Of a stretch of DNA of 64,000 bases, positions 1 through 17,554 are shown one piece after another. The stretch is from Escherichia coli (GTDB lineage: Bacteria; Pseudomonadota; Gammaproteobacteria; Enterobacterales; Enterobacteriaceae): assembly GCF_041886205.1 (NCBI RefSeq), contig NZ_CP169031.1, one strand, 5' to 3'. The notes beneath the pieces are model-generated. The model made no database searches and was not told the DNA's origin. It saw only the letters and a list, made by a program, of their open reading frames with translations. A program made the translations under genes and the position numbers. Within the stretch, counting starts at the first letter, position 1, and every line of letters begins with the position of its first letter.

Positions 1-861
1 ATGAATCAATCTTTTATCTCCGATATTCTTTACGCAGACATTGAAAGTAAGGCAAAAGAACTAACAGTTAATTCAAACAACACTGTGCAGCCTGTAGCGT
101 TGATGCGCTTGGGGGTATTCGTGCCGAAGCCATCAAAGAGCAAAGGAGAAAGTAAAGAGATTGATGCCACCAAAGCGTTTTCCCAGCTGGAGATAGCTAA
201 AGCCGAGGGTTACGATGATATTAAAATCACCGGTCCTCGACTCGATATGGATACTGATTTCAAAACGTGGATCGGTGTCATCTACGCGTTCAGCAAATAC
301 GGCTTGTCCTCAAACACCATCCAGTTATCGTTTCAGGAATTCGCTAAAGCCTGTGGTTTCCCCTCAAAACGTCTGGATGCGAAACTGCGTTTAACCATTC
401 ATGAATCACTTGGACGCTTGCGTAACAAGGGTATCGCTTTTAAGCGCGGAAAAGATGCTAAAGGCGGCTATCAGACTGGTCTGCTGAAGGTCGGACGTTT
501 TGATGCTGACCTTGATCTGATAGAGCTGGAGGCTGATTCGAAGCTGTGGGAGCTGTTCCAGCTTGATTATCGCGTTCTGTTGCAACACCACGCCTTGCGT
601 GCCCTTCCGAAGAAAGAAGCTGCACAAGCCATTTACACTTTCATCGAAAGCCTTCCGCAGAACCCGTTGCCGCTATCGTTCGCGCGAATCCGTGAGCGCC
701 TGGCTTTGCAGTCAGCTGTTGGCGAGCAAAACCGTATCATTAAGAAAGCGATAGAACAGCTTAAAACAATCGGCTATCTCGACTGTTCAATTGAGAAGAA
801 AGGCCGGGAAAGTTTTGTAATCGTCCATTCTCGCAATCCAAAGCTGAAACTCCCCGAATAA
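1..861 (+). CDS. repA: Plasmid replication initiator RepA (P1 type)
   Basis: 286-aa ORF starting at window base 1, immediately followed by an iteron array and then parA/parB; sequence recalled as P1 RepA-like. The upstream origin lies outside the window. Confidence 0.85.
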   Translation: MNQSFISDILYADIESKAKELTVNSNNTVQPVALMRLGVFVPKPSKSKGESKEIDATKAFSQLEIAKAEGYDDIKITGPRLDMDTDFKTWIGVIYAFSKYGLSSNTIQLSFQEFAKACGFPSKRLDAKLRLTIHESLGRLRNKGIAFKRGKDAKGGYQTGLLKVGRFDADLDLIELEADSKLWELFQLDYRVLLQHHALRALPKKEAAQAIYTFIESLPQNPLPLSFARIRERLALQSAVGEQNRIIKKAIEQLKTIGYLDCSIEKKGRESFVIVHSRNPKLKLPE

Positions 862-1212
862 GTGTGTGCTGGAGGGCAGCTGCATTCAAAAAATGTGTGC
901 TGCCGGGAAGGCTTGTCCAATTTCCCGTTTTTGATGTGCGCTGGAGGGGGACGCCCCGCAGTTTGCTCAGACTTTCCCTCCAGCACACATCTGTCCATCC
1001 GTTTTTCCCTCCAGTGCACATGTAATTCTCTGTCTTTCCCTCCAGCACACATATTTGATACCAGCGATCCCTCCACAGCACATAATTCAATGCGACTTCC
1101 CTCTATCGCACATTCTGGTCCTGCATCATCCCTCCAGCACACATCTAATAGCCTCATCGCCATTTCTTTACGTGCAATAATTGACGCACGAATCAAAAAA
1201 AGTTGCACGTAG
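862..1212. repeat. incA: incA-type iteron array, nine ~19-bp repeats
   Basis: Repeats of tgtgtgctggaggg-like units: three in one orientation (about 865, 892, 931) and six in the opposite orientation as ttccctccagcacacat-like units (about 973, 1003, 1036, 1069, 1097, 1129). The ORFs overlapping this array are artefacts of the repeats. Confidence 0.8.
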
Positions 1213-1254
1213 CAGAATCAAACGTACAATTCACTCATACGAAATGATAAGGAG

Positions 1255-2466
1255 ATGATGATGAAACGCGATTACGGCGGTGTCGGCACCATAGCTCTTC
1301 GTGCAAGCGCATTACTTAAGGCCATGAGTCAGGATATTGAAGATCAGCGCAAAGAGTTCAATCAGACCGAGTATTATCAGACGTTCACTCGTAACGCTGT
1401 GGCAAAGTTGCCGAAGCTGAGCCGCCGCATTGTGGAGCAGGCCATCAAAGAGATGGAAGATGATGGGTACCAGTTCAACAAGAAACAGGTCGGTAACGTT
1501 GAACAGTACGCGCTGACCATCCAGAACGTCATTGATATCTATGCCCACCGTAAGATCCCCAAATATCGCGACATTCACAAATCGCCTTACGTTATTTTTG
1601 TCGTAAACCTGAAGGGTGGCGTATCCAAAACGGTTTCCACAGTCACGTTGGCGCACGCTCTGCGTGTGCATCAGGATTTACTGCGTCACGATCTGCGCAT
1701 TCTGGTAATTGACCTTGACCCTCAGGCATCCAGCACAATGTTCCTCGACCATACTCACAGTATTGGTTCCATCCTGGAAACCGCCGCGCAGGCGATGCTG
1801 AACGACCTGGACGCGGAGACGCTACGCAAAGAGGTGATTCGTCCGACCATCGTTCCTGGCGTAGACGTGATTCCAGCCTCTATCGACGATGGCTTTGTTG
1901 CCAGCCAATGGAAAGAGCTGGTTGAAGAGCATCTTCCCGGACAAAATCAGTACGAAATCCTTCGACGCAATATCATTGATCGTGTTGCGGATGATTATGA
2001 CTTTATCTTTATTGATACCGGTCCACACCTGGATCCGTTCCTGCTCAACGGTCTGGCGGCCAGCGATTTGCTGCTTACCCCTACCCCACCAGCCCAGGTT
2101 GACTTCCACTCAACACTGAAATATCTCACCCGTCTGCCAGAAATGCTGGAGCAACTGGAGGAGGAAGGCGTAGAACCGCGTTTGAGCGCCAGCATTGGTT
2201 TTATGTCGAAGATGACCGGCAAGCGCGATCACGAGACATCACACAGCCTTGCGCGTGAGGTTTACGCCAGCAACATTCTGGACTCTTCTCTGCCTCGTCT
2301 GGATGGCTTTGAGCGATGCGGCGAGTCTTTCGACACCGTAATCAGTGCCAACCCGCAATCGTATCCAGGCAGTGCAGAGGCGCTGAAGAAGGCACGAACC
2401 GAGGCCGAGCGTTTCACTAAGGCTGTGTTTGATCGAATTGAGTTTGTTAGGGGTGAGGCGGCATGA
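1255..2466 (+). CDS. parA: Partition ATPase ParA (type Ia, long N-terminus)
   Basis: 403-aa ORF with deviant Walker A (KGGVSKT); overlaps the parB start by 4 nt (atga). The true start may be one of the three leading Met codons. Confidence 0.85.
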   Translation: MMMKRDYGGVGTIALRASALLKAMSQDIEDQRKEFNQTEYYQTFTRNAVAKLPKLSRRIVEQAIKEMEDDGYQFNKKQVGNVEQYALTIQNVIDIYAHRKIPKYRDIHKSPYVIFVVNLKGGVSKTVSTVTLAHALRVHQDLLRHDLRILVIDLDPQASSTMFLDHTHSIGSILETAAQAMLNDLDAETLRKEVIRPTIVPGVDVIPASIDDGFVASQWKELVEEHLPGQNQYEILRRNIIDRVADDYDFIFIDTGPHLDPFLLNGLAASDLLLTPTPPAQVDFHSTLKYLTRLPEMLEQLEEEGVEPRLSASIGFMSKMTGKRDHETSHSLAREVYASNILDSSLPRLDGFERCGESFDTVISANPQSYPGSAEALKKARTEAERFTKAVFDRIEFVRGEAA

Positions 2467-3428
2467 AAAAAATAGTTTCCCGTGGACGAGTGCTGGGCAA
2501 GAATAGCTCCGAGTTTGCTCGCATGCTTGAAGGCAGTGAAGGCACCAAAACCTTTACCCTAAAATCTGGCCGCCAGGCTAAATTCTTGCTTACCGTCGTG
2601 CTGAGTGGTGAGATTGAGTCGCGCACGTTCGTTGACCCGGCAGTTAACGGCCGCGATCAGTCTCTGCTCACCCCTGAGTCGGTAAGCGATATTTCCCGCA
2701 CCATTAAATTGCAACAGTTCTTCCCGGCTATCGGTCGTATGGTTGGGGAGCGCATTGAGGTATTGGACGGATCGCGTCGCCGTGCTGCGTGTATCTTCAA
2801 TGAAACGAAATTTGAGATTCTGGTGACGAAAGATGAGATCAGCCTGGCGGATGCCCGCCAGCTGGCCATTGATATCCAGACAGCCCGCGAACACACTCTG
2901 CGCGAGCTGGGTAAACGCTTCGAGGTTATGTACGGTAAGAATATGACCAAAGAAGAGATCGCCCGAGCTGAGAACATCTCAAAGGCTAAAGTGACGCGAG
3001 CTTTCCAGGCTGCCGCGGTGCCGGATGAGATGATTGCTGTCTTCCCCGTAGCCAGCGATCTCGCCCTTCCAGATTACCAGTTACTGCTCCAGATCGCCGA
3101 GGATGCTAACGCTAAAAGCGTGCCGATTGAAGAGCTGGTTGATACGGTGCGCGAACGAATTGCAGAGACTGAGGGCGCGAAAGAGGATAAAGCGAAGATA
3201 CTGGCTATCTTCAAAGCGGAAAGCAAAAGCCTGAAGCCCGCGCCGGTTAAATCTGTGGTGGTTGAGAAGCTGCGAGACTTCTCTGACCGTCGCCAATATG
3301 CCCGAAAGAAGTCCGATCCGAAAAAACGGGTTGTCGCCTACGAGTTCTCCAGACTCCCGTCTGAAGTGCAAACTGAAATTGACGAAGCAATAAAAAAAAT
3401 CATTGGGAAAATGTCTGCTGGGGAATAA
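2463..3428 (+). CDS. parB: Partition centromere-binding protein ParB
   Basis: 321-aa ORF translationally coupled to parA and followed by an AT-rich centromere-like region. Confidence 0.8.
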   Translation: MKKIVSRGRVLGKNSSEFARMLEGSEGTKTFTLKSGRQAKFLLTVVLSGEIESRTFVDPAVNGRDQSLLTPESVSDISRTIKLQQFFPAIGRMVGERIEVLDGSRRRAACIFNETKFEILVTKDEISLADARQLAIDIQTAREHTLRELGKRFEVMYGKNMTKEEIARAENISKAKVTRAFQAAAVPDEMIAVFPVASDLALPDYQLLLQIAEDANAKSVPIEELVDTVRERIAETEGAKEDKAKILAIFKAESKSLKPAPVKSVVVEKLRDFSDRRQYARKKSDPKKRVVAYEFSRLPSEVQTEIDEAIKKIIGKMSAGE

Positions 3429-3479
3429 TCCCGCTGGTGGGAGGCGGCTTTAGCCCCCTCCCCTGTCTAAAATGTCCCG

Positions 3480-3565
3480 CGTCTATTTCATGTATAAATA
3501 TATGATATATATAGATATTCATGAAAAATTTCAGACTGAAATTCCCACGGTTTCACGCCTGTTTT
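3480..3565. promoter_or_regulatory. parS: parS-like partition site: AT-rich core flanked by ATTTCA-type heptamer repeats
   Basis: Directly downstream of parB: atttcatg, aatttcag, gaaattc and ggtttcacgcc flank an AT-rich stretch (tataaatatatgatatatatagatattcat) that could be an IHF site. The box sequences differ from my recollection of P1 parS. Confidence 0.4.
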
Positions 3566-3623
3566 ACTTGCCCCCCTCCCCCGCACAAAAAATTTAAAAA
3601 ATTACTTTTAGCGAGAAAGTCAA

Positions 3624-3643
3624 CAAGTGACTTTCAATAAAAT
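3624..3643 (+). promoter_or_regulatory. Late-promoter-like element: caagtgact, 5 nt, taaaat
   Basis: 9-mer caagtgact followed after 5 nt by a -10-like hexamer, with no -35, about 30 bp upstream of the capsid gene. The same architecture recurs at 25770, 44558, 48297 (minus) and 57477 (minus). Confidence 0.45.
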
Positions 3644-3673
3644 CTCTTCCGAAAAGGGATTCACACAAGTGCC

Positions 3674-5401
3674 TTGTGTTTAAGGAAGAGTAAATTGAGT
3701 AACTTACGCGAATACCAGAATCGTATTGCAGATATCGCAAAACGCTCTAAAGCTGTGCTTGGCTGGGCAAGCACTGCGCAGTTCGGTACTGATAACCAAT
3801 TCATTAAAGATGATGCCGCGCGTGCCGCATCTATCCTTGAAGCTGCACGTAAAGACCCGGTTTTTGCGGGTATCTCTGATAATGCCACCGCTCAAATCGC
3901 TACAGCGTGGGCAAGTGCACTGGCTGACTACGCCGCAGCACATAAATCTATGCCGCGTCCGGAAATTCTGGCCTCCTGCCACCAGACGCTGGAAAACTGC
4001 CTGATTGAGTCCACCCGCAATAGCATGGATGCCACTAATAAAGCGATGCTGGAATCCGTCGCAGCAGAGATGATGAGCGTTTCTGACGGTGTTATGCGTC
4101 TGCCTTTATTCCTCGCGATGATCCTGCCTGTTCAGTTGGGGGCCGCTACCGCTGATGCGTGTACCTTCATTCCGGTTACGCGTGACCAGTCAGACATCTA
4201 TGAAGTCTTTAACGTGGCAGGTTCCTCTTTTGGTTCTTATGCTGCTGGTGATGTTCTGGACATGCAATCCGTCGGGGTGTACAGCCAGTTACGCCGCCGC
4301 TATGTGCTGGTGGCAAGCTCCGATGGCACCAGCAAAACCGCAACCTTCAAGATGGAAGACTTCGAAGGCCAGAATGTACCAATCCGAAAAGGTCGTACTA
4401 ACATCTACGTTAACCGTATTAAGTCTGTTGTTGATAACGGTTCCGGCAGCCTACTTCACTCGTTTACTAATGCTGCTGGTGAGCAAATCACTGTTACCTG
4501 CTCTCTGAACTACAACATTGGTCAGATTGCCCTGTCGTTCTCCAAAGCGCCGGATAAAGGCACTGAGATCGCAATTGAGACGGAAATCAATATTGAAGCC
4601 GCTCCTGAGCTGATCCCGCTGATCAACCACGAAATGAAGAAATACACCCTGTTCCCAAGCCAGTTCGTTATCGCGGCTGAGCACACGGTACAGGCGGCGT
4701 ATGAAGCACAGCGTGAATTTGGTCTGGACCTGGGTTCCCTACAGTTCCGCACCCTGAAGGAATACCTGTCTCATGAACAGGATATGCTGCGTCTTCGCAT
4801 CATGATCTGGCGTACTCTTGCGACCGACACCTTTGACATCGCTCTGCCGGTTAACCAGTCCTTTGATGTATGGGCAACCATCATTCGTGGCAAATTCCAG
4901 ACTGTATATCGCGACATTATTGAGCGCGTTAAATCTTCTGGTGCGATGGGGATGTTTGCTGGTGCTGATGCAGCATCTTTCTTCAAACAGTTGCCGAAGG
5001 ATTTCTTCCAGCCAGCCGAAGACTATATCCAGACTCCGTATGTTCACTACATCGGTACCCTGTTCGGTAACGTGAAAGTGTACGAAGTACCTGCTGGTAT
5101 TTGTAAGAACTTAACGACAGAGAACATTCAGTTCAGCTCGATGGATGTGCTGTGCTACGTCCGTGATGAAAATCCGGGTAAAGCAGGCTTCGTGACTGGT
5201 GATGCTGTCCCGGCTATCCCGTTCCAGCATCCGACCACTCCGGCGCTGGTCAACCGTACCACACTGTGGGGTTCGGCTATCAACGATATGCACCCACGCA
5301 ACGGCGCTGATTACTTCACTCGTGTAACGCTGACAATGGCCAAAAAAGGCGGGCTTAACTTCATTAGCGGCGACACGATTGATGCCGGTGACTCTGAGTA
5401 A
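3674..5401 (+). CDS. Putative major head protein precursor (P1 gene 23-like)
   Basis: 575-aa ORF, first gene after parS and preceded by a late-promoter-like element. The track start is TTG; an in-frame TTG at 3695 has a better RBS (aaggaag). Confidence 0.5.
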   Translation: MCLRKSKLSNLREYQNRIADIAKRSKAVLGWASTAQFGTDNQFIKDDAARAASILEAARKDPVFAGISDNATAQIATAWASALADYAAAHKSMPRPEILASCHQTLENCLIESTRNSMDATNKAMLESVAAEMMSVSDGVMRLPLFLAMILPVQLGAATADACTFIPVTRDQSDIYEVFNVAGSSFGSYAAGDVLDMQSVGVYSQLRRRYVLVASSDGTSKTATFKMEDFEGQNVPIRKGRTNIYVNRIKSVVDNGSGSLLHSFTNAAGEQITVTCSLNYNIGQIALSFSKAPDKGTEIAIETEINIEAAPELIPLINHEMKKYTLFPSQFVIAAEHTVQAAYEAQREFGLDLGSLQFRTLKEYLSHEQDMLRLRIMIWRTLATDTFDIALPVNQSFDVWATIIRGKFQTVYRDIIERVKSSGAMGMFAGADAASFFKQLPKDFFQPAEDYIQTPYVHYIGTLFGNVKVYEVPAGICKNLTTENIQFSSMDVLCYVRDENPGKAGFVTGDAVPAIPFQHPTTPALVNRTTLWGSAINDMHPRNGADYFTRVTLTMAKKGGLNFISGDTIDAGDSE

Positions 5402-10428: not shown

Positions 10429-11439
10429 CTATAAACTCTGAACAAGACGTTCGATTGCTGCACCATATCTTTCTAATGGTTCATTATTGATTTGTGGCTC
10501 AGTATCATGGATCTGATATCTGCCTGGTTTTATATCAAATAGAGGTCTTCCTAGATGGGAAGATACTATAGCTACGGAATGGTTATCTGGCACAGTAAAC
10601 GTTTTTAAATTTCCGCCTTGGAACGCTGTTGGTTTATTCGTCCGCAGATTTTCAGCTCTATCCCTGATTTCGTCGAACATTGCCGAAAACGCTTTACTTG
10701 CTCGTTTGTCATACTCTGTCGAACGATTAAAAACTAGAGAATGAATGACAGGAACCGCTAGACCAAACTGTTGACACCGATCGTAAAAGTTAACAGAACG
10801 ATAATCGTTTTGTACTCCAACGCCATAAACCAACTGGCTTAGGTTATCCACTGCTCGAGCCGAAGAACCATCACTTGAGCAAGGTATTATAATTGCATTT
10901 GCTGCTATCAGTGATAGTTCGGTATAGGCAGAGAAACTGGGGTTGCAATCAATAAAGCAAATGGTTTCTTCGATACCTTGTTGTTGTGCACATGCAACAA
11001 GCAAATCTCGTAGCCACAGGTGGATGCTTTTCCATGAGTCAACTGGTAAGTTTACGCTGCTTAACTGATTGATTACTTGCGCCTGAACTTCCAGGCTTGG
11101 GTCGCCTGCAATCAAAAATACATTGTCAGGGACATGTCCGTTAATTTCAGAGACATGAATTAAGAAACTTGTTTCTGAACCGGTAAGCATGTGGGGGCTG
11201 CGAGTTCTTCTGTCAAAGTACCCACCGACAGTTTTTCGTTGTTGAATTAAGCTCGCGAGGTTAGCAGCACCAGTACCGTTACCGCCGAGCAATATTTCAG
11301 ATAAGTTAGCCTGCGGGCACATATCTGCAAAAATAATACGCTTTTCTGGATTTTGCCTTGCGTATTCACAGGCCATAGCGAAAGATAAGTAGGTCTTTCC
11401 TACGCCACCTTTATTATTCCAAATAGCATACGATTTCAT
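10429..11439 (-). CDS. Orphan ParA/MinD-family P-loop ATPase with ~90-aa C-terminal extension
   Basis: Deviant Walker A (NNKGGVGKTY) near the N-terminus; likely start MKSYAIW at 11439 (track ORF extends to 11484). No partner ParB-like gene; separate from parAB at 1255-3428. Confidence 0.6.
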   Translation of the reverse strand: MKSYAIWNNKGGVGKTYLSFAMACEYARQNPEKRIIFADMCPQANLSEILLGGNGTGAANLASLIQQRKTVGGYFDRRTRSPHMLTGSETSFLIHVSEINGHVPDNVFLIAGDPSLEVQAQVINQLSSVNLPVDSWKSIHLWLRDLLVACAQQQGIEETICFIDCNPSFSAYTELSLIAANAIIIPCSSDGSSARAVDNLSQLVYGVGVQNDYRSVNFYDRCQQFGLAVPVIHSLVFNRSTEYDKRASKAFSAMFDEIRDRAENLRTNKPTAFQGGNLKTFTVPDNHSVAIVSSHLGRPLFDIKPGRYQIHDTEPQINNEPLERYGAAIERLVQSL

Positions 11440-11747
11440 GGTATCCCCGGCGTTATCTGCTGTTTGTGTGCCAGCATAAGTCATTATGCATCTCCATTAC
11501 TATCCATGAATTAAGTCAAAAAATATGTAAAAGTAGCAATGTATCACTCTTTTACTCATTATAAACGTTACAAGTTGTGATGGTTAGCTGTGTTTTTATC
11601 AGTACAAGTTTTGATCTGGCTTTGGGTTTTTATATATGGATATGTCTCAACGATGCCCTGCAAAAAGTGATCGCTAACTGTAAAAATCAGATTGCATCTC
11701 CGACCTCAAACTGAAAATGCCAGGTGACTCCAGATTAGAGCAATCTA

Positions 11748-12593
11748 TCACCCTCTGAATCCTGCCGGTATACCCCATTTTTCGTTATCTTTATTTTTGG
11801 CGAAAACCGCATTAAGAGCTTCGTTTACCGTCATGCAATGCGGCAGATTATCGAAGTTTGATATCCCGCTAATATCAGGAGAACGCTTGTTCTTCAGGTA
11901 AGTATATTTCCGCGCTGCCGCCTCTACTTTCTGCTTGAACTCATGTTTTTGAGCGCGTTTTTTGGATAACCGCAGATTGTCAGCCTTTGCTTTTGCCTCA
12001 GCGATCCATGAAGTCAATTTTTTGAGTCTGGTCGTTCCGGCACCGCCGGAAACTGATCTTTTTGTTTTTTTAATTTGTGACTTCTTATTCTTTATTGCCA
12101 CGTCATCCTGACAGGGGGAGGGGGTATCATTTTGACATGGGGGTGTGGATAAAAAATCAAATAAAGCCAATGTCTTAGCGAGAACAGCTTTAACCTTGGT
12201 TGCGGCTGAAGAGATCTTTAATTTGCTTTCAATTAGCGCATTTTTGGCTTGTTGAGCAAAGGCTAAAAAGGATGGTGTAAACCGGTACAGGTTAGCGCGG
12301 CGTTCACGGTGATCGCCGATAACAATCTCTACCGACAGGATTCCTTTGTTTACAGCTTCACGGAATGCGCGAACGACGGTTGATTGGCTATAACCAGTTT
12401 CTGCCGCGATCAGGCGGTGAGGCTTGTGAATGAAGTATTCACTGGTTGTTGCCGCGAGATTTGCACATTGCGACAGGATATGCCCGGCGCTACGGGATAG
12501 ACCGGAGTGTGTTACAAAGCAGGCCAATTCATAGCCAGAAAAAGTAAAATCGCTCATCGTTATACAGCTCAGGAAAGTGACTTTAGCCAGCAT
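11748..12593 (-). CDS. repL: Lytic replication protein RepL
   Basis: 281-aa ORF downstream of kilA in the ant-kilA-repL arrangement; size and sequence recalled as P1 RepL. Confidence 0.75.
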   Translation of the reverse strand: MLAKVTFLSCITMSDFTFSGYELACFVTHSGLSRSAGHILSQCANLAATTSEYFIHKPHRLIAAETGYSQSTVVRAFREAVNKGILSVEIVIGDHRERRANLYRFTPSFLAFAQQAKNALIESKLKISSAATKVKAVLAKTLALFDFLSTPPCQNDTPSPCQDDVAIKNKKSQIKKTKRSVSGGAGTTRLKKLTSWIAEAKAKADNLRLSKKRAQKHEFKQKVEAAARKYTYLKNKRSPDISGISNFDNLPHCMTVNEALNAVFAKNKDNEKWGIPAGFRG

Positions 12594-15164: not shown

Positions 15165-15181
15165 AAATTTATTAGAGCATT
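15165..15181. promoter_or_regulatory. C1 operator-like site (aaatttattagagcatt)
   Basis: Near-consensus operator at the start of the ImmI operon. Confidence 0.6.
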
Positions 15182-15277
15182 GCTTGTTTAATAAATGCAC
15201 AATTGGATCTAATAACCTCTTTTTTTTAAAGGCGAAAATATGTACCCTAAATGAGTTATAAGGCAGGTGAGGTTATA

Positions 15278-15769
15278 ATGAGAAAACTATTACTACCGTT
15301 ATTATTTATGGCTGGGACTGTTAATGCAGCATCAAGCGTGAAGGAGATTTGTACCGATTATACGAAATACCTTGGGCACGTTTACGGCTTTGCTGTCAGT
15401 CAAGACGAATCCATGCGCAAGAAGTTACTGTCAGATATGAAACGTCTTAAACTTTCTGAAGCGATGGTGCAGCAAGAACTATATAAAGTCGCAACCAACG
15501 AAAATGCTAAATATCAATATTCTCGCCTATTAAATCCCGACGCAAACGAGATCAATCGAAGCACTTTCGATTATATGGTAAAGGCATGCGAAACCGCTCC
15601 TGATTTTGCTATCCCTAGCTGGGGTGTGCTGGTGGCGAGCAATGCCGTTAATAAAGAAGATGTTGGAAGAAATGGCATTGACTCAATAAGAAATGCCCCA
15701 GGAATGCGCCATCAAAACGTACAGGGTACGCTTGAAGAACGAGCCAGGGGGCCGGGTGTAGCCCCATAA
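15278..15769 (+). CDS. Secreted hypothetical protein (Sec signal peptide)
   Basis: Start MRKLLLPLLFMAGTVNA with an AxA cleavage motif; 2 Cys in the mature part; the C-terminus shares a GMR..VQGTLEERARG motif with Sit. AT-rich gene. Confidence 0.55.
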   Translation: MRKLLLPLLFMAGTVNAASSVKEICTDYTKYLGHVYGFAVSQDESMRKKLLSDMKRLKLSEAMVQQELYKVATNENAKYQYSRLLNPDANEINRSTFDYMVKACETAPDFAIPSWGVLVASNAVNKEDVGRNGIDSIRNAPGMRHQNVQGTLEERARGPGVAP

Positions 15770-15857
15770 TTTTATAAATAATATTAAATTCTCTGGGCAT
15801 AGTGGATCTAACAATATGGACTATGCCTATAATATCTAAAAACAAAAGGATAAAAAT

Positions 15858-16364
15858 ATGAAATTGTATAAGTCATTGTATAGCTTTTTATTAATGTCCT
15901 CTTTTCTGCCATTATCAGCAATGGCAGGTTCTACCGTTTGGACGGTAGGAGGTGAGCAAGGGTGGAGAGAAATCTCTGCAACCAATGACGATGGTTACAC
16001 AATTAACTTTTCTTGTGATGCTGGAGCAAGGGAAGGTTCAGAAGATCATATCGCTGGAAGAAATTTGTATGTAAGCGGAGGAAAAGAGAATGCCGATTTT
16101 TCTACACGCGACACAATATCACGTAAAGCAGATGTAATTACTTTAATTGTTGGCCCGGATAGTTTTAATATTGGCACGCAAAACACTGCTCCTAATCGTA
16201 GGGAATGGTATTCATTTTGGAAGGCAGTGTCATCTACAAATGAAAAAAACATAGATGTATATATCGGTTCGAGTCGAATCACATCATTCACTCTGGATGG
16301 TATTTCCAGTATTTATACAGAAGCTAAAAATGACGGGTGTTTAAAACAAGATGACGGTGAATAA
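15858..16364 (+). CDS. Secreted hypothetical protein (Sec signal peptide)
   Basis: N-terminus MKLYKSLYSFLLMSSFLPLSAMA; 168 aa; AT-rich; overlaps the next gene by 14 nt. Confidence 0.55.
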   Translation: MKLYKSLYSFLLMSSFLPLSAMAGSTVWTVGGEQGWREISATNDDGYTINFSCDAGAREGSEDHIAGRNLYVSGGKENADFSTRDTISRKADVITLIVGPDSFNIGTQNTAPNRREWYSFWKAVSSTNEKNIDVYIGSSRITSFTLDGISSIYTEAKNDGCLKQDDGE

Positions 16365-17424
16365 AGTGAAGGATATTAAACACATTTCGCTTAACTCTAA
16401 TAATAAAGCTGAAGGCACTGCCTTTTATGATTATTTAAATGAAATTAAAGGAGTGAGGCATAAAAAGATAAGTGGTTTATTAAATTCAGAATATATTTAC
16501 AAGAGTTTAGTTAAACAGTTTGGAACAGTTAAAAAACAAGAATTAATTAATGATTGTTTTCGAAAAGAACTTGAGTCTTTACCAAAAGTTACGAGAATTG
16601 CACACCAGTTTCGTGAACAAATGGTATTTTTACAGAAACAGTATCAGGCGGCTTTTCCCAGTGATGCAAATGAGCATATTCAAATAATTAAAAATCAAGC
16701 TGAAATGGCTATGCCGTTACGAAAACACTCAGAAGCCATTAATAAGATAGCTGGCTTAAATAATATGGAGGAGGTATTTAAAGAATTACACTCTAATATA
16801 AATTACAAAATTAAGATAAGCAAAGATATTAAAGAAATAATAAAGCAGTATAATAAAACAAGAAGTGTATTATTAGAGCAAGTAGTAGAGCTTGGGCTTG
16901 TTACTATCGCGCAGGCTTATGCTAATGATTCTATAAAATCAGCGCATACCGAAAGTGAGCATCAAAACAAAGGATTTAATAAATCTAGTTCGACGTTTTT
17001 TGATTCATTTAAGGCGCTTCCTTCTCCTATTCAGATCTTCCTTCTGTGGATTTTTTATCAAGTGGTGCTTGGCGCTATAACTGATTATGCAAAAGAAAAG
17101 ACATTATCGCAAATTTACAAGATGGAATCATATCTTCTATCTCTAAATGAGGATAAGCCAATATCTAAGCAAAAGCTAACACAAGAAAATAAAGATATTC
17201 AGTGGGAGGATCTTAATAATTTTAGAGCTATAACAGGTGATAACGTAAGGTTGCATGTCGGCCCTTCTTTAAATAGTGAAGTGATTGAATGCATTGGCAA
17301 AAACACAATTGTTGCTATTTTAGATAAGAAAGATCGTCAATGGCTTTACGTGCAGGTTAAATCAGGGGATGAGTTTATTACTGGTTGGATTACACGAACA
17401 TACACAAAGCCTCTTAAGGCTTGA
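16351..17424 (+). CDS. Membrane protein with C-terminal SH3b-like domain
   Basis: 357 aa; predicted single TM helix (IQIFLLWIFYQVVLGAI); C-terminal RLHVGPSLNSEVI...GWITRTY resembles bacterial SH3b. Lys/Asn-rich, AT-rich codon usage. Confidence 0.55.
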   Translation: MTVNKVKDIKHISLNSNNKAEGTAFYDYLNEIKGVRHKKISGLLNSEYIYKSLVKQFGTVKKQELINDCFRKELESLPKVTRIAHQFREQMVFLQKQYQAAFPSDANEHIQIIKNQAEMAMPLRKHSEAINKIAGLNNMEEVFKELHSNINYKIKISKDIKEIIKQYNKTRSVLLEQVVELGLVTIAQAYANDSIKSAHTESEHQNKGFNKSSSTFFDSFKALPSPIQIFLLWIFYQVVLGAITDYAKEKTLSQIYKMESYLLSLNEDKPISKQKLTQENKDIQWEDLNNFRAITGDNVRLHVGPSLNSEVIECIGKNTIVAILDKKDRQWLYVQVKSGDEFITGWITRTYTKPLKA

Positions 17425-17554
17425 ATTTTATCTCCGCATCTTCGGATTGGGTGTTGATGACGATGTGCTACTTGAAGCACTTGAGTTGTTTTAACGTAGT
17501 ATCTGAAATGTGTAGACTGACCGGTAACAAATGACAACTCGTAGAATCGGTTAA

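Follow-up and report, generated by a model that had tools for sequence, protein, structure and literature searches.

Sequence evidence for a P7-type parS partition site on a P1-like IncY phage-plasmid of Escherichia coli

The DNA analysed here, hereinafter the window, is a 64 kb stretch of Escherichia coli sequence that opens at the start codon (ATG) of repA on a P1-like phage-plasmid. From its first nucleotide onwards, the gene order is repA, incA iterons, parA, parB, the parS region, the predicted late promoter LP23 and gene 23 (Table 1). The LP23 sequence, which lies outside parS, is the same in P7, P1 and this plasmid. Plasmids related to this P1-like element (eight relatives were fetched from PLSDB) are typed as IncY. 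The parS site begins 46 nt past the parB stop codon and carries no annotated feature in the RefSeq/PLSDB plasmid records examined.

Table 1. Features at the replication and partition end of the window (coordinates are window positions).
Feature	Position	Strand	Basis or remark
repA	1-861		Product 286/286 identical to P1 RepA
incA iterons	about 861-1145		P7 annotation transferred
par promoter/operator, left edge of the P7-type par module	1149-1254	+	Between last incA iteron and parA
parA, type Ia partition ATPase with N-terminal HTH domain	1255-2466	+	Homology to P7 ParA
parB, P7-type centromere-binding protein	2463-3428	+	Homology to P7 ParB
GC-rich, hairpin-forming inverted repeat immediately 3' of parB	3436-3464	+	11-nt arms, 91% complementary
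Probable P7-type parS, centromere-like site, B1-A1-IHF-A2-A3-B2-A4	3474-3556	+	Annotation transferred from AF503408
Box B1, GTCCCG	3474-3479	+	P7 GenBank feature 'parS boxB(1)'
Box A1, ATTTCAT	3485-3491	+	P7 feature boxA(1)
IHF site (predicted), TAAATATATGATA	3495-3507	+	P7 GenBank 'IHF' protein_bind feature, same sequence
Box A2, ATTTCAG	3528-3534	+	P7 feature boxA(2)
Box A3, CTGAAAT on the + strand (ATTTCAG inverted)	3536-3542	-	P7 feature boxA(3)
Box B2, TTCCCA, specificity-determining hexamer	3542-3547	+	P7 feature boxB(2)
Box A4, GTTTCAC	3550-3556	+	P7 feature boxA(4)
CT-rich block downstream of parS, GCCCCCCTCCCCCGCA, 88% GC	3570-3585	+	Repeats the hairpin's 3' arm in direct orientation
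LP23, predicted late promoter, -22 box AAGTGACTT, -10 TAAAAT	3625-3643	+	P7 and P1 GenBank features
Gene 23, major capsid protein (upf57.5 in P7), downstream neighbour	3695-5401	+	Position and sequence equivalence to P1 gp23/P7 Upf57.5

Searched against phage records with blastn, the region 3380-3700 aligns over its full length with phage P7, at 98.8% identity to AF503408/NC_050152 and 98.4% to X17529. The P7 annotation was transferred with a constant offset (window position = P7 record position + 3079; box B1 occupies 395-400 in the P7 record), and all six ParB boxes annotated in P7 are identical here in sequence and spacing. As in P7, the elements follow each other in the order B1, A1, IHF, A2, A3, B2, A4, the site is placed between parB and LP23/gene 23, and it is accompanied by the hairpin just past parB and by the CT-rich block, whereas the backbone elsewhere is mosaic and not identical to that of P7. 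Only three substitutions separate the region from P7, namely, T for C at 3482 in the B1-A1 spacer, T for C at 3516 in the IHF-A2 spacer and A for G at 3535, where one base separates A2 from A3; all three fall outside the boxes and the IHF site. Across 1156-2584, comprising the par promoter region and parA, the number of substitutions relative to P7 is zero. Judging from these alignments, 3474-3556 is almost certainly a parS belonging to the P7 species of the P1par family, a family of type Ia ParABS systems, and is carried by a P1-like IncY phage-plasmid. The site is already known, being part of the long-characterised P7 partition system, and represents no new specificity. Experimental statements on P7 made below draw on GenBank features, PMC10999674 and general background.

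The sequence-only reading, made without database searches, had pointed to ATTTCA-type heptamers and an AT-rich core downstream of parB, and both are indeed found. There are four heptamers of the form [A/G]TTTCAN, three of them on the + strand (3485, 3528, 3550) and one on the - strand (3536), and the GC content is 16% in the core (3485-3534) and 14% in 3492-3527, compared to 48% across the window. Boxes A2 and A3 form a perfect 8-bp inverted repeat. The composite core A2-A3-B2 (ATTTCAGNCTGAAATTCCCAC) occurs once in the 64 kb, with 0.01 occurrences expected by chance, and a search of the whole window for a second parS of either P7 or P1 type found none. The consensus for IHF binding is WATCAANNNNTTR (reverse complement, YAANNNNTTGATW), and the predicted IHF site agrees with the reverse complement at all specified positions except one. 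The spacer region 3486-3526 also forms a near-palindrome (TTTCATGTATAAATATAT/ATATAGATATTCATGAAA), with TA-repeat-rich, 18-nt arms that are 83% complementary, which is present in this allele and in P7 and absent from the other P7-family alleles. Inside this palindrome, CATGAAAA at 3519-3526 looks like a box A in inverted orientation, but it was not counted because other alleles do not conserve it.

The proteins encoded upstream of the site can be assigned with the same reference. ParA is identical to P7 ParA (AAQ07529) at 403 of 403 amino acids and contains the Pfam domains HTH_54 (ParA HTH; E 4e-37) and AAA_31, a Walker-type ATPase (E 8e-24). ParB shares 319 of its 321 residues (99.4%) with P7 ParB (AAQ07528), the two differences being N160S and A212S. 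It matches Pfam PF08775 (ParB; E 4e-33) and, above the cut-off, TIGR00180 (parB_part), contains a GxxRxxA-type motif, LDGSRRRA, at residues 101-108, and over residues 137-316 matches the P1 ParB(142-333)-parS structures 1zx4 and 2ntz (E 4e-30). The hallmarks of type Ia ParABS systems, a Walker-type ParA with an N-terminal HTH domain and an HTH ParB with an N-terminal motif, are thus all found here.

The same reading had failed to find the P1 box B hexamer and surmised that the partition specificity might differ from that of P1. There are zero copies of TCGCCA in 3430-3660, the closest one being located at 3290-3295, within parB; in the window as a whole, the hexamer occurs 49 times, which is at chance level (expected 38.9 +/- 6.6). 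It was not found next to the heptamers because the corresponding positions of the P7 allele read TTCCCA and GTCCCG. An intact P1-type parS, the box B hexamers of which had merely been overlooked, is extremely improbable. Although the right half of the site is P1-like (ATTTCAGACTGAAATTCCCACGGTTTCAC versus ATTTCAAGGTGAAATCGCCACGATTTCAC in P1) and the neighbouring repA is 100% P1-like, the aligned hexamers are those of P7, the left half of parS and the C-terminus of ParB lack a DNA-level alignment with P1, and ParB is only 43% identical to P1 ParB. Within 3380-3700, P1 aligns only from about 3525 on, at about 87% identity. Furthermore, of the features that would mark a P1-type parS (incB), TCGCCA is missing and ParB has Arg (R277) at the position aligned with Asp288. 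Alignment with the parS sites and ParB proteins of both phages therefore gave a match to P7 and not the intact P1-type site that would have spoken against the surmise of a different specificity; with 98.8% identity in parS, 319/321 in ParB and 100% in ParA, the alignments argue for P7-type specificity.

The P1 and P7 sites nonetheless have the same general organization. In both, box B-box A, the IHF site and box A-box A-box B-box A are located directly downstream of parB, the box A heptamers belong to a common family, a CT-rich tract follows downstream, and LP23, gene 23 and RepA are identical in P1 and in this plasmid. By contrast, P1 has TCGCCA at both box B positions, as opposed to GTCCCG and TTCCCA here, the spacers are unrelated, and P1 lacks the 41-nt hairpin-bearing segment between the parB stop codon and B1. 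At the DNA level, the parA of this plasmid is about 65% identical to that of the E. fergusonii plasmid NZ_AP028849.1, which is of P1 type. Because box B, the spacers, ParB and parA differ, cross-specificity between the P1 par system and this one is not expected. The par systems of P1 and P7 reportedly do not cross-react. The family layout is also common to pMT1 (Yersinia pestis), pWR100 (Shigella), pSLT (Salmonella) and Pantoea megaplasmids, among which box B discriminates (PMC10999674). Matches of pSLT-like sequences to the P1 parS are weak (about 76%). Unlike the alleles of pMT1, pWR100, pSLT and Pantoea, the parS of this plasmid is essentially P7's own allele.

In this family, the sites are laid out as BA...IHF...AABA, with IHF bending the centre and ParB binding the A and B boxes of each arm; A2-A3-B2 is enough for ParB binding (PMC10999674). 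Box B, especially B2, discriminates the family members and sets partition incompatibility, and an Asp residue of P1 ParB is key to reading the second base of box B2 (PMC10999674). This Asp is probably D288 in the numbering of P1 ParB. D288 aligns with R277 in both the ParB studied here and P7 ParB, and the second base of box B2 is C in TCGCCA of P1 and T in TTCCCA. The ParB segment aligned to the D288 region, FSDRRQYARKK, is invariant across the P7 family. By analogy with P1 and P7, host IHF would bind the AT-rich centre at 3495-3507 and bend the DNA, after which ParB dimers would span the bend, the HTH domains reading A1-A4 and the C-terminal dimer domain reading B1 and B2. The resulting partition complex would then stimulate the nucleoid-bound ParA ATPase, so that plasmid copies come to lie on either side of the division plane. 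In structural work and in studies of P1 and P7, box A is said to be read by the HTH and box B by the C-terminal dimer domain. Species specificity would be set by box B, and above all by B2, in combination with the discriminator region in the C-terminal part of ParB that matches it. Going by the boxes and the ParB sequence, the site should be functional with the ParB of P7 but not with that of P1, and partition-mediated incompatibility should be directed at P7-type rather than P1-type plasmids.

The P7-type site is not rare. About 234 plasmids in PLSDB have a full-length match to 3429-3590, with 91 at >=95% identity, 16 at 80-90% and 128 at 60-80%, compared to about 545 records with a P1-type parS. 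Among 5426 complete E. coli genomes, the site was found in 74, on plasmids every time, and copies 100% identical to it occur in many independent plasmids. OP279344.1, which is named 'Escherichia phage P1' (host MG1655 Z1), carries P7-type parB/parS, 99.1% identical to 3380-3700, and therefore the organism name is no guide to the par type.

To compare alleles, we considered 10 P7-family sequences, including eight divergent plasmids from the lower PLSDB identity tiers. The ParB proteins of these eight relatives are 92-99% identical to the one studied here, and the boxes are kept in all eight. Box B2 (TTCCCA) and box A3 are invariant in 10/10 sequences, and box B1 is GTCCCG in nine of them and GTCCTG in one. 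Box A1 is either ATTTCAT or ATTTCAC and box A2 conforms to [A/G]TTTCAG, whereas box A4 is variable (GTTTCAC, ATTTAAC, GTTTAAC, TTTTCAC). The IHF core TAA-N5-TGA is retained across divergent alleles, with TGAT in 9/10 sequences and ATGAAT in the remaining one (L008). Within 3467-3566, 34 of the 39 positions in ParB boxes are invariant versus 22 of the 61 other positions; the corresponding Fisher test (p = 4e-7, 10 sequences) is only indicative because phylogenetically related sequences are treated as independent. Such conservation of the boxes across otherwise divergent alleles indicates purifying selection, as far as can be told from the alignment. It also bears on whether parS could be a decayed, non-functional remnant, with the plasmid being kept by other maintenance functions, which is hardly credible: nothing direct speaks for decay beyond the presence of a second ParA-like gene at 10432-11484, whereas both par genes are intact and all but identical to the functional P7 genes, seven of the seven site elements are intact, the conservation in divergent alleles is specific to the boxes, and identical copies of the site recur in independent plasmids.

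Outside the boxes, there is considerable variation. Among P7-family plasmids (relatives L005-L012), parS (3467-3600) is a sharp local hotspot of divergence, with 70-87% identity, whereas in the same plasmids parB DNA is 96-98% and the LP23 region 98-100% identical. Even where ParB is 98-99% identical, divergence in the spacer, box A4 and the CT-rich flank reaches 30%, which corresponds to about half of the positions outside the boxes. Divergent spacers are found, for example, in CP099135, CP074002, CP025944 and CP077703. All four combinations of left-spacer and right-flank alleles are found (this allele/P7, L005, L006 and L007), a pattern suggestive of recombination inside the conserved A2-A3-B2 core and not of fast divergence in place. 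That the P7-family parS is a site of ongoing allelic diversification, with alleles reshuffled by recombination in the A2-A3-B2 core, is nevertheless unlikely. If the differences in spacer, A4 and flank tuned the geometry of the partition complex or made incompatibility sub-types, they would constitute a new layer of specificity beyond box B.

It is conceivable, but very unlikely, that the site has a third specificity, neither P1 nor P7, arising from the three parS and two ParB substitutions or from the family-wide divergence of the spacers and A4. The divergence hotspot and the variability of box A4 among relatives would fit such a specificity, and single base or residue changes can reportedly switch specificity in this family. 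However, the three DNA differences from P7 all spare the boxes and the IHF site, and box B2 and the ParB segment FSDRRQYARKK do not vary within the P7 family. N160S and A212S do sit in the region aligned with the DNA-binding fragment of P1 ParB, but both are also seen in other P7-family plasmids, the boxes of which are unchanged. Moreover, ParB binding is reported to need only A2-A3-B2 (PMC10999674). Assignment to the P7 species is thus the preferred reading.

The sequence-only reading had further noticed GC-rich GGGAGG and CCTCCC blocks on both sides of the site, and these are borne out as an inverted repeat at 3439-3462, an arm of which is found again at 3572-3590. The arms of the hairpin are GGGAGGCGGCT (3439-3449) and AGCCCCCTCCC (3452-3462); CCCCCTCCCC of the upstream block recurs at 3572-3581, downstream of parS, and the full direct repeat pairs 3454-3472 with 3572-3590. 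As RNA, the hairpin at 3436-3464 folds with -17.9 kcal/mol (z -1.8 versus shuffled sequences), which is a modest gain. It is conserved in 10/10 P7-family sequences, P1 has a gap there, and compensatory changes in the stem are absent across the 10 sequences. An intrinsic (Rho-independent) terminator was considered and rejected, given that the T-run is missing and a terminator scan made no call. Given the conserved stem and the absence of covariation, the hairpin may or may not have a structural role. A long-range interaction between 3439-3447 and 3572-3580, with parS in the loop, was likewise rejected as unsupported because the downstream block is poorly conserved (CACTTCCCC in relatives L009-L012) and the upstream arm is absent in P1. 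In P1, an analogous CT-rich stretch lies downstream of parS, where record K02380 annotates a 'CT/AT-rich region'. The GC-rich blocks do not affect the identification of parS. parS is bracketed by this P7-specific GGGAGG/CCTCCC inverted and direct repeat, and if the flanking repeats were structural, insulating parS from transcription or from ParB spreading, they too would add a layer beyond box B.

The closest overall backbones are those of E. fergusonii IncY plasmids, such as NZ_AP028849.1 (99.6% identity over 90% of 1-25000), which bear P1-type par. Homology to the E. fergusonii backbone ends at 1148, just past incA, and restarts at 3525, just before box A2. The intervening 1149-3524, running from the promoter/operator through parA and parB into the left half of parS, therefore looks like a swapped cassette, i.e. 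the par module appears to behave as an exchangeable unit with its right junction inside parS.

As for incompatibility, the sequence-only reading had held that a different partition specificity would matter for coexistence with P1-like plasmids. This is expected to hold for the partition component but not for replication control. Given that RepA is 100% identical to that of P1 and that the related plasmids are IncY, replication-control incompatibility with P1 should remain, and a P1 prophage would still be excluded via replication control, whatever the par type. Only the partition (incB-type) component depends on the par type, and P7-type par does not confer compatibility with P1, since the RepA replicon is identical. 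The assignment itself advances no open biological question; its value lies in annotation and typing, in that P1-like IncY phage-plasmids, which often carry resistance genes, have at least two partition types, and from the par type one can predict whether phage-plasmids in the same cell are incompatible through partition.

The mosaic backbone includes several segments that differ from P7. A short stretch at 21804-22411, inside sit (injection transglycosylase), has no P7 match at the megablast level. The segment 9057-11733 stands in place of P7 rapA/rapB and holds the orphan ParA-like gene mentioned above (10432-11484, - strand), which is located directly downstream of repL (11748-12593, - strand) and encodes a 351-aa ATPase (AAA_31/CbiA, phrog_164). 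An adjacent ParB partner is absent, and the gene has no counterpart in any P1-like phage of the phage collection searched; the closest phage homologue of its product is the ParA-like protein of Pseudomonas phage phi297 (70.8% amino acid identity). A second segment non-homologous to P7, at 15180-17526, occupies the place of the P7 upf50.0/upf50.5 region and codes for three proteins without assigned function, namely, one with a weak match to PTP-like phytase, below the Pfam cut-off, one belonging to phrog_3429 and a 357-aa protein with a C-terminal SH3_3 domain.
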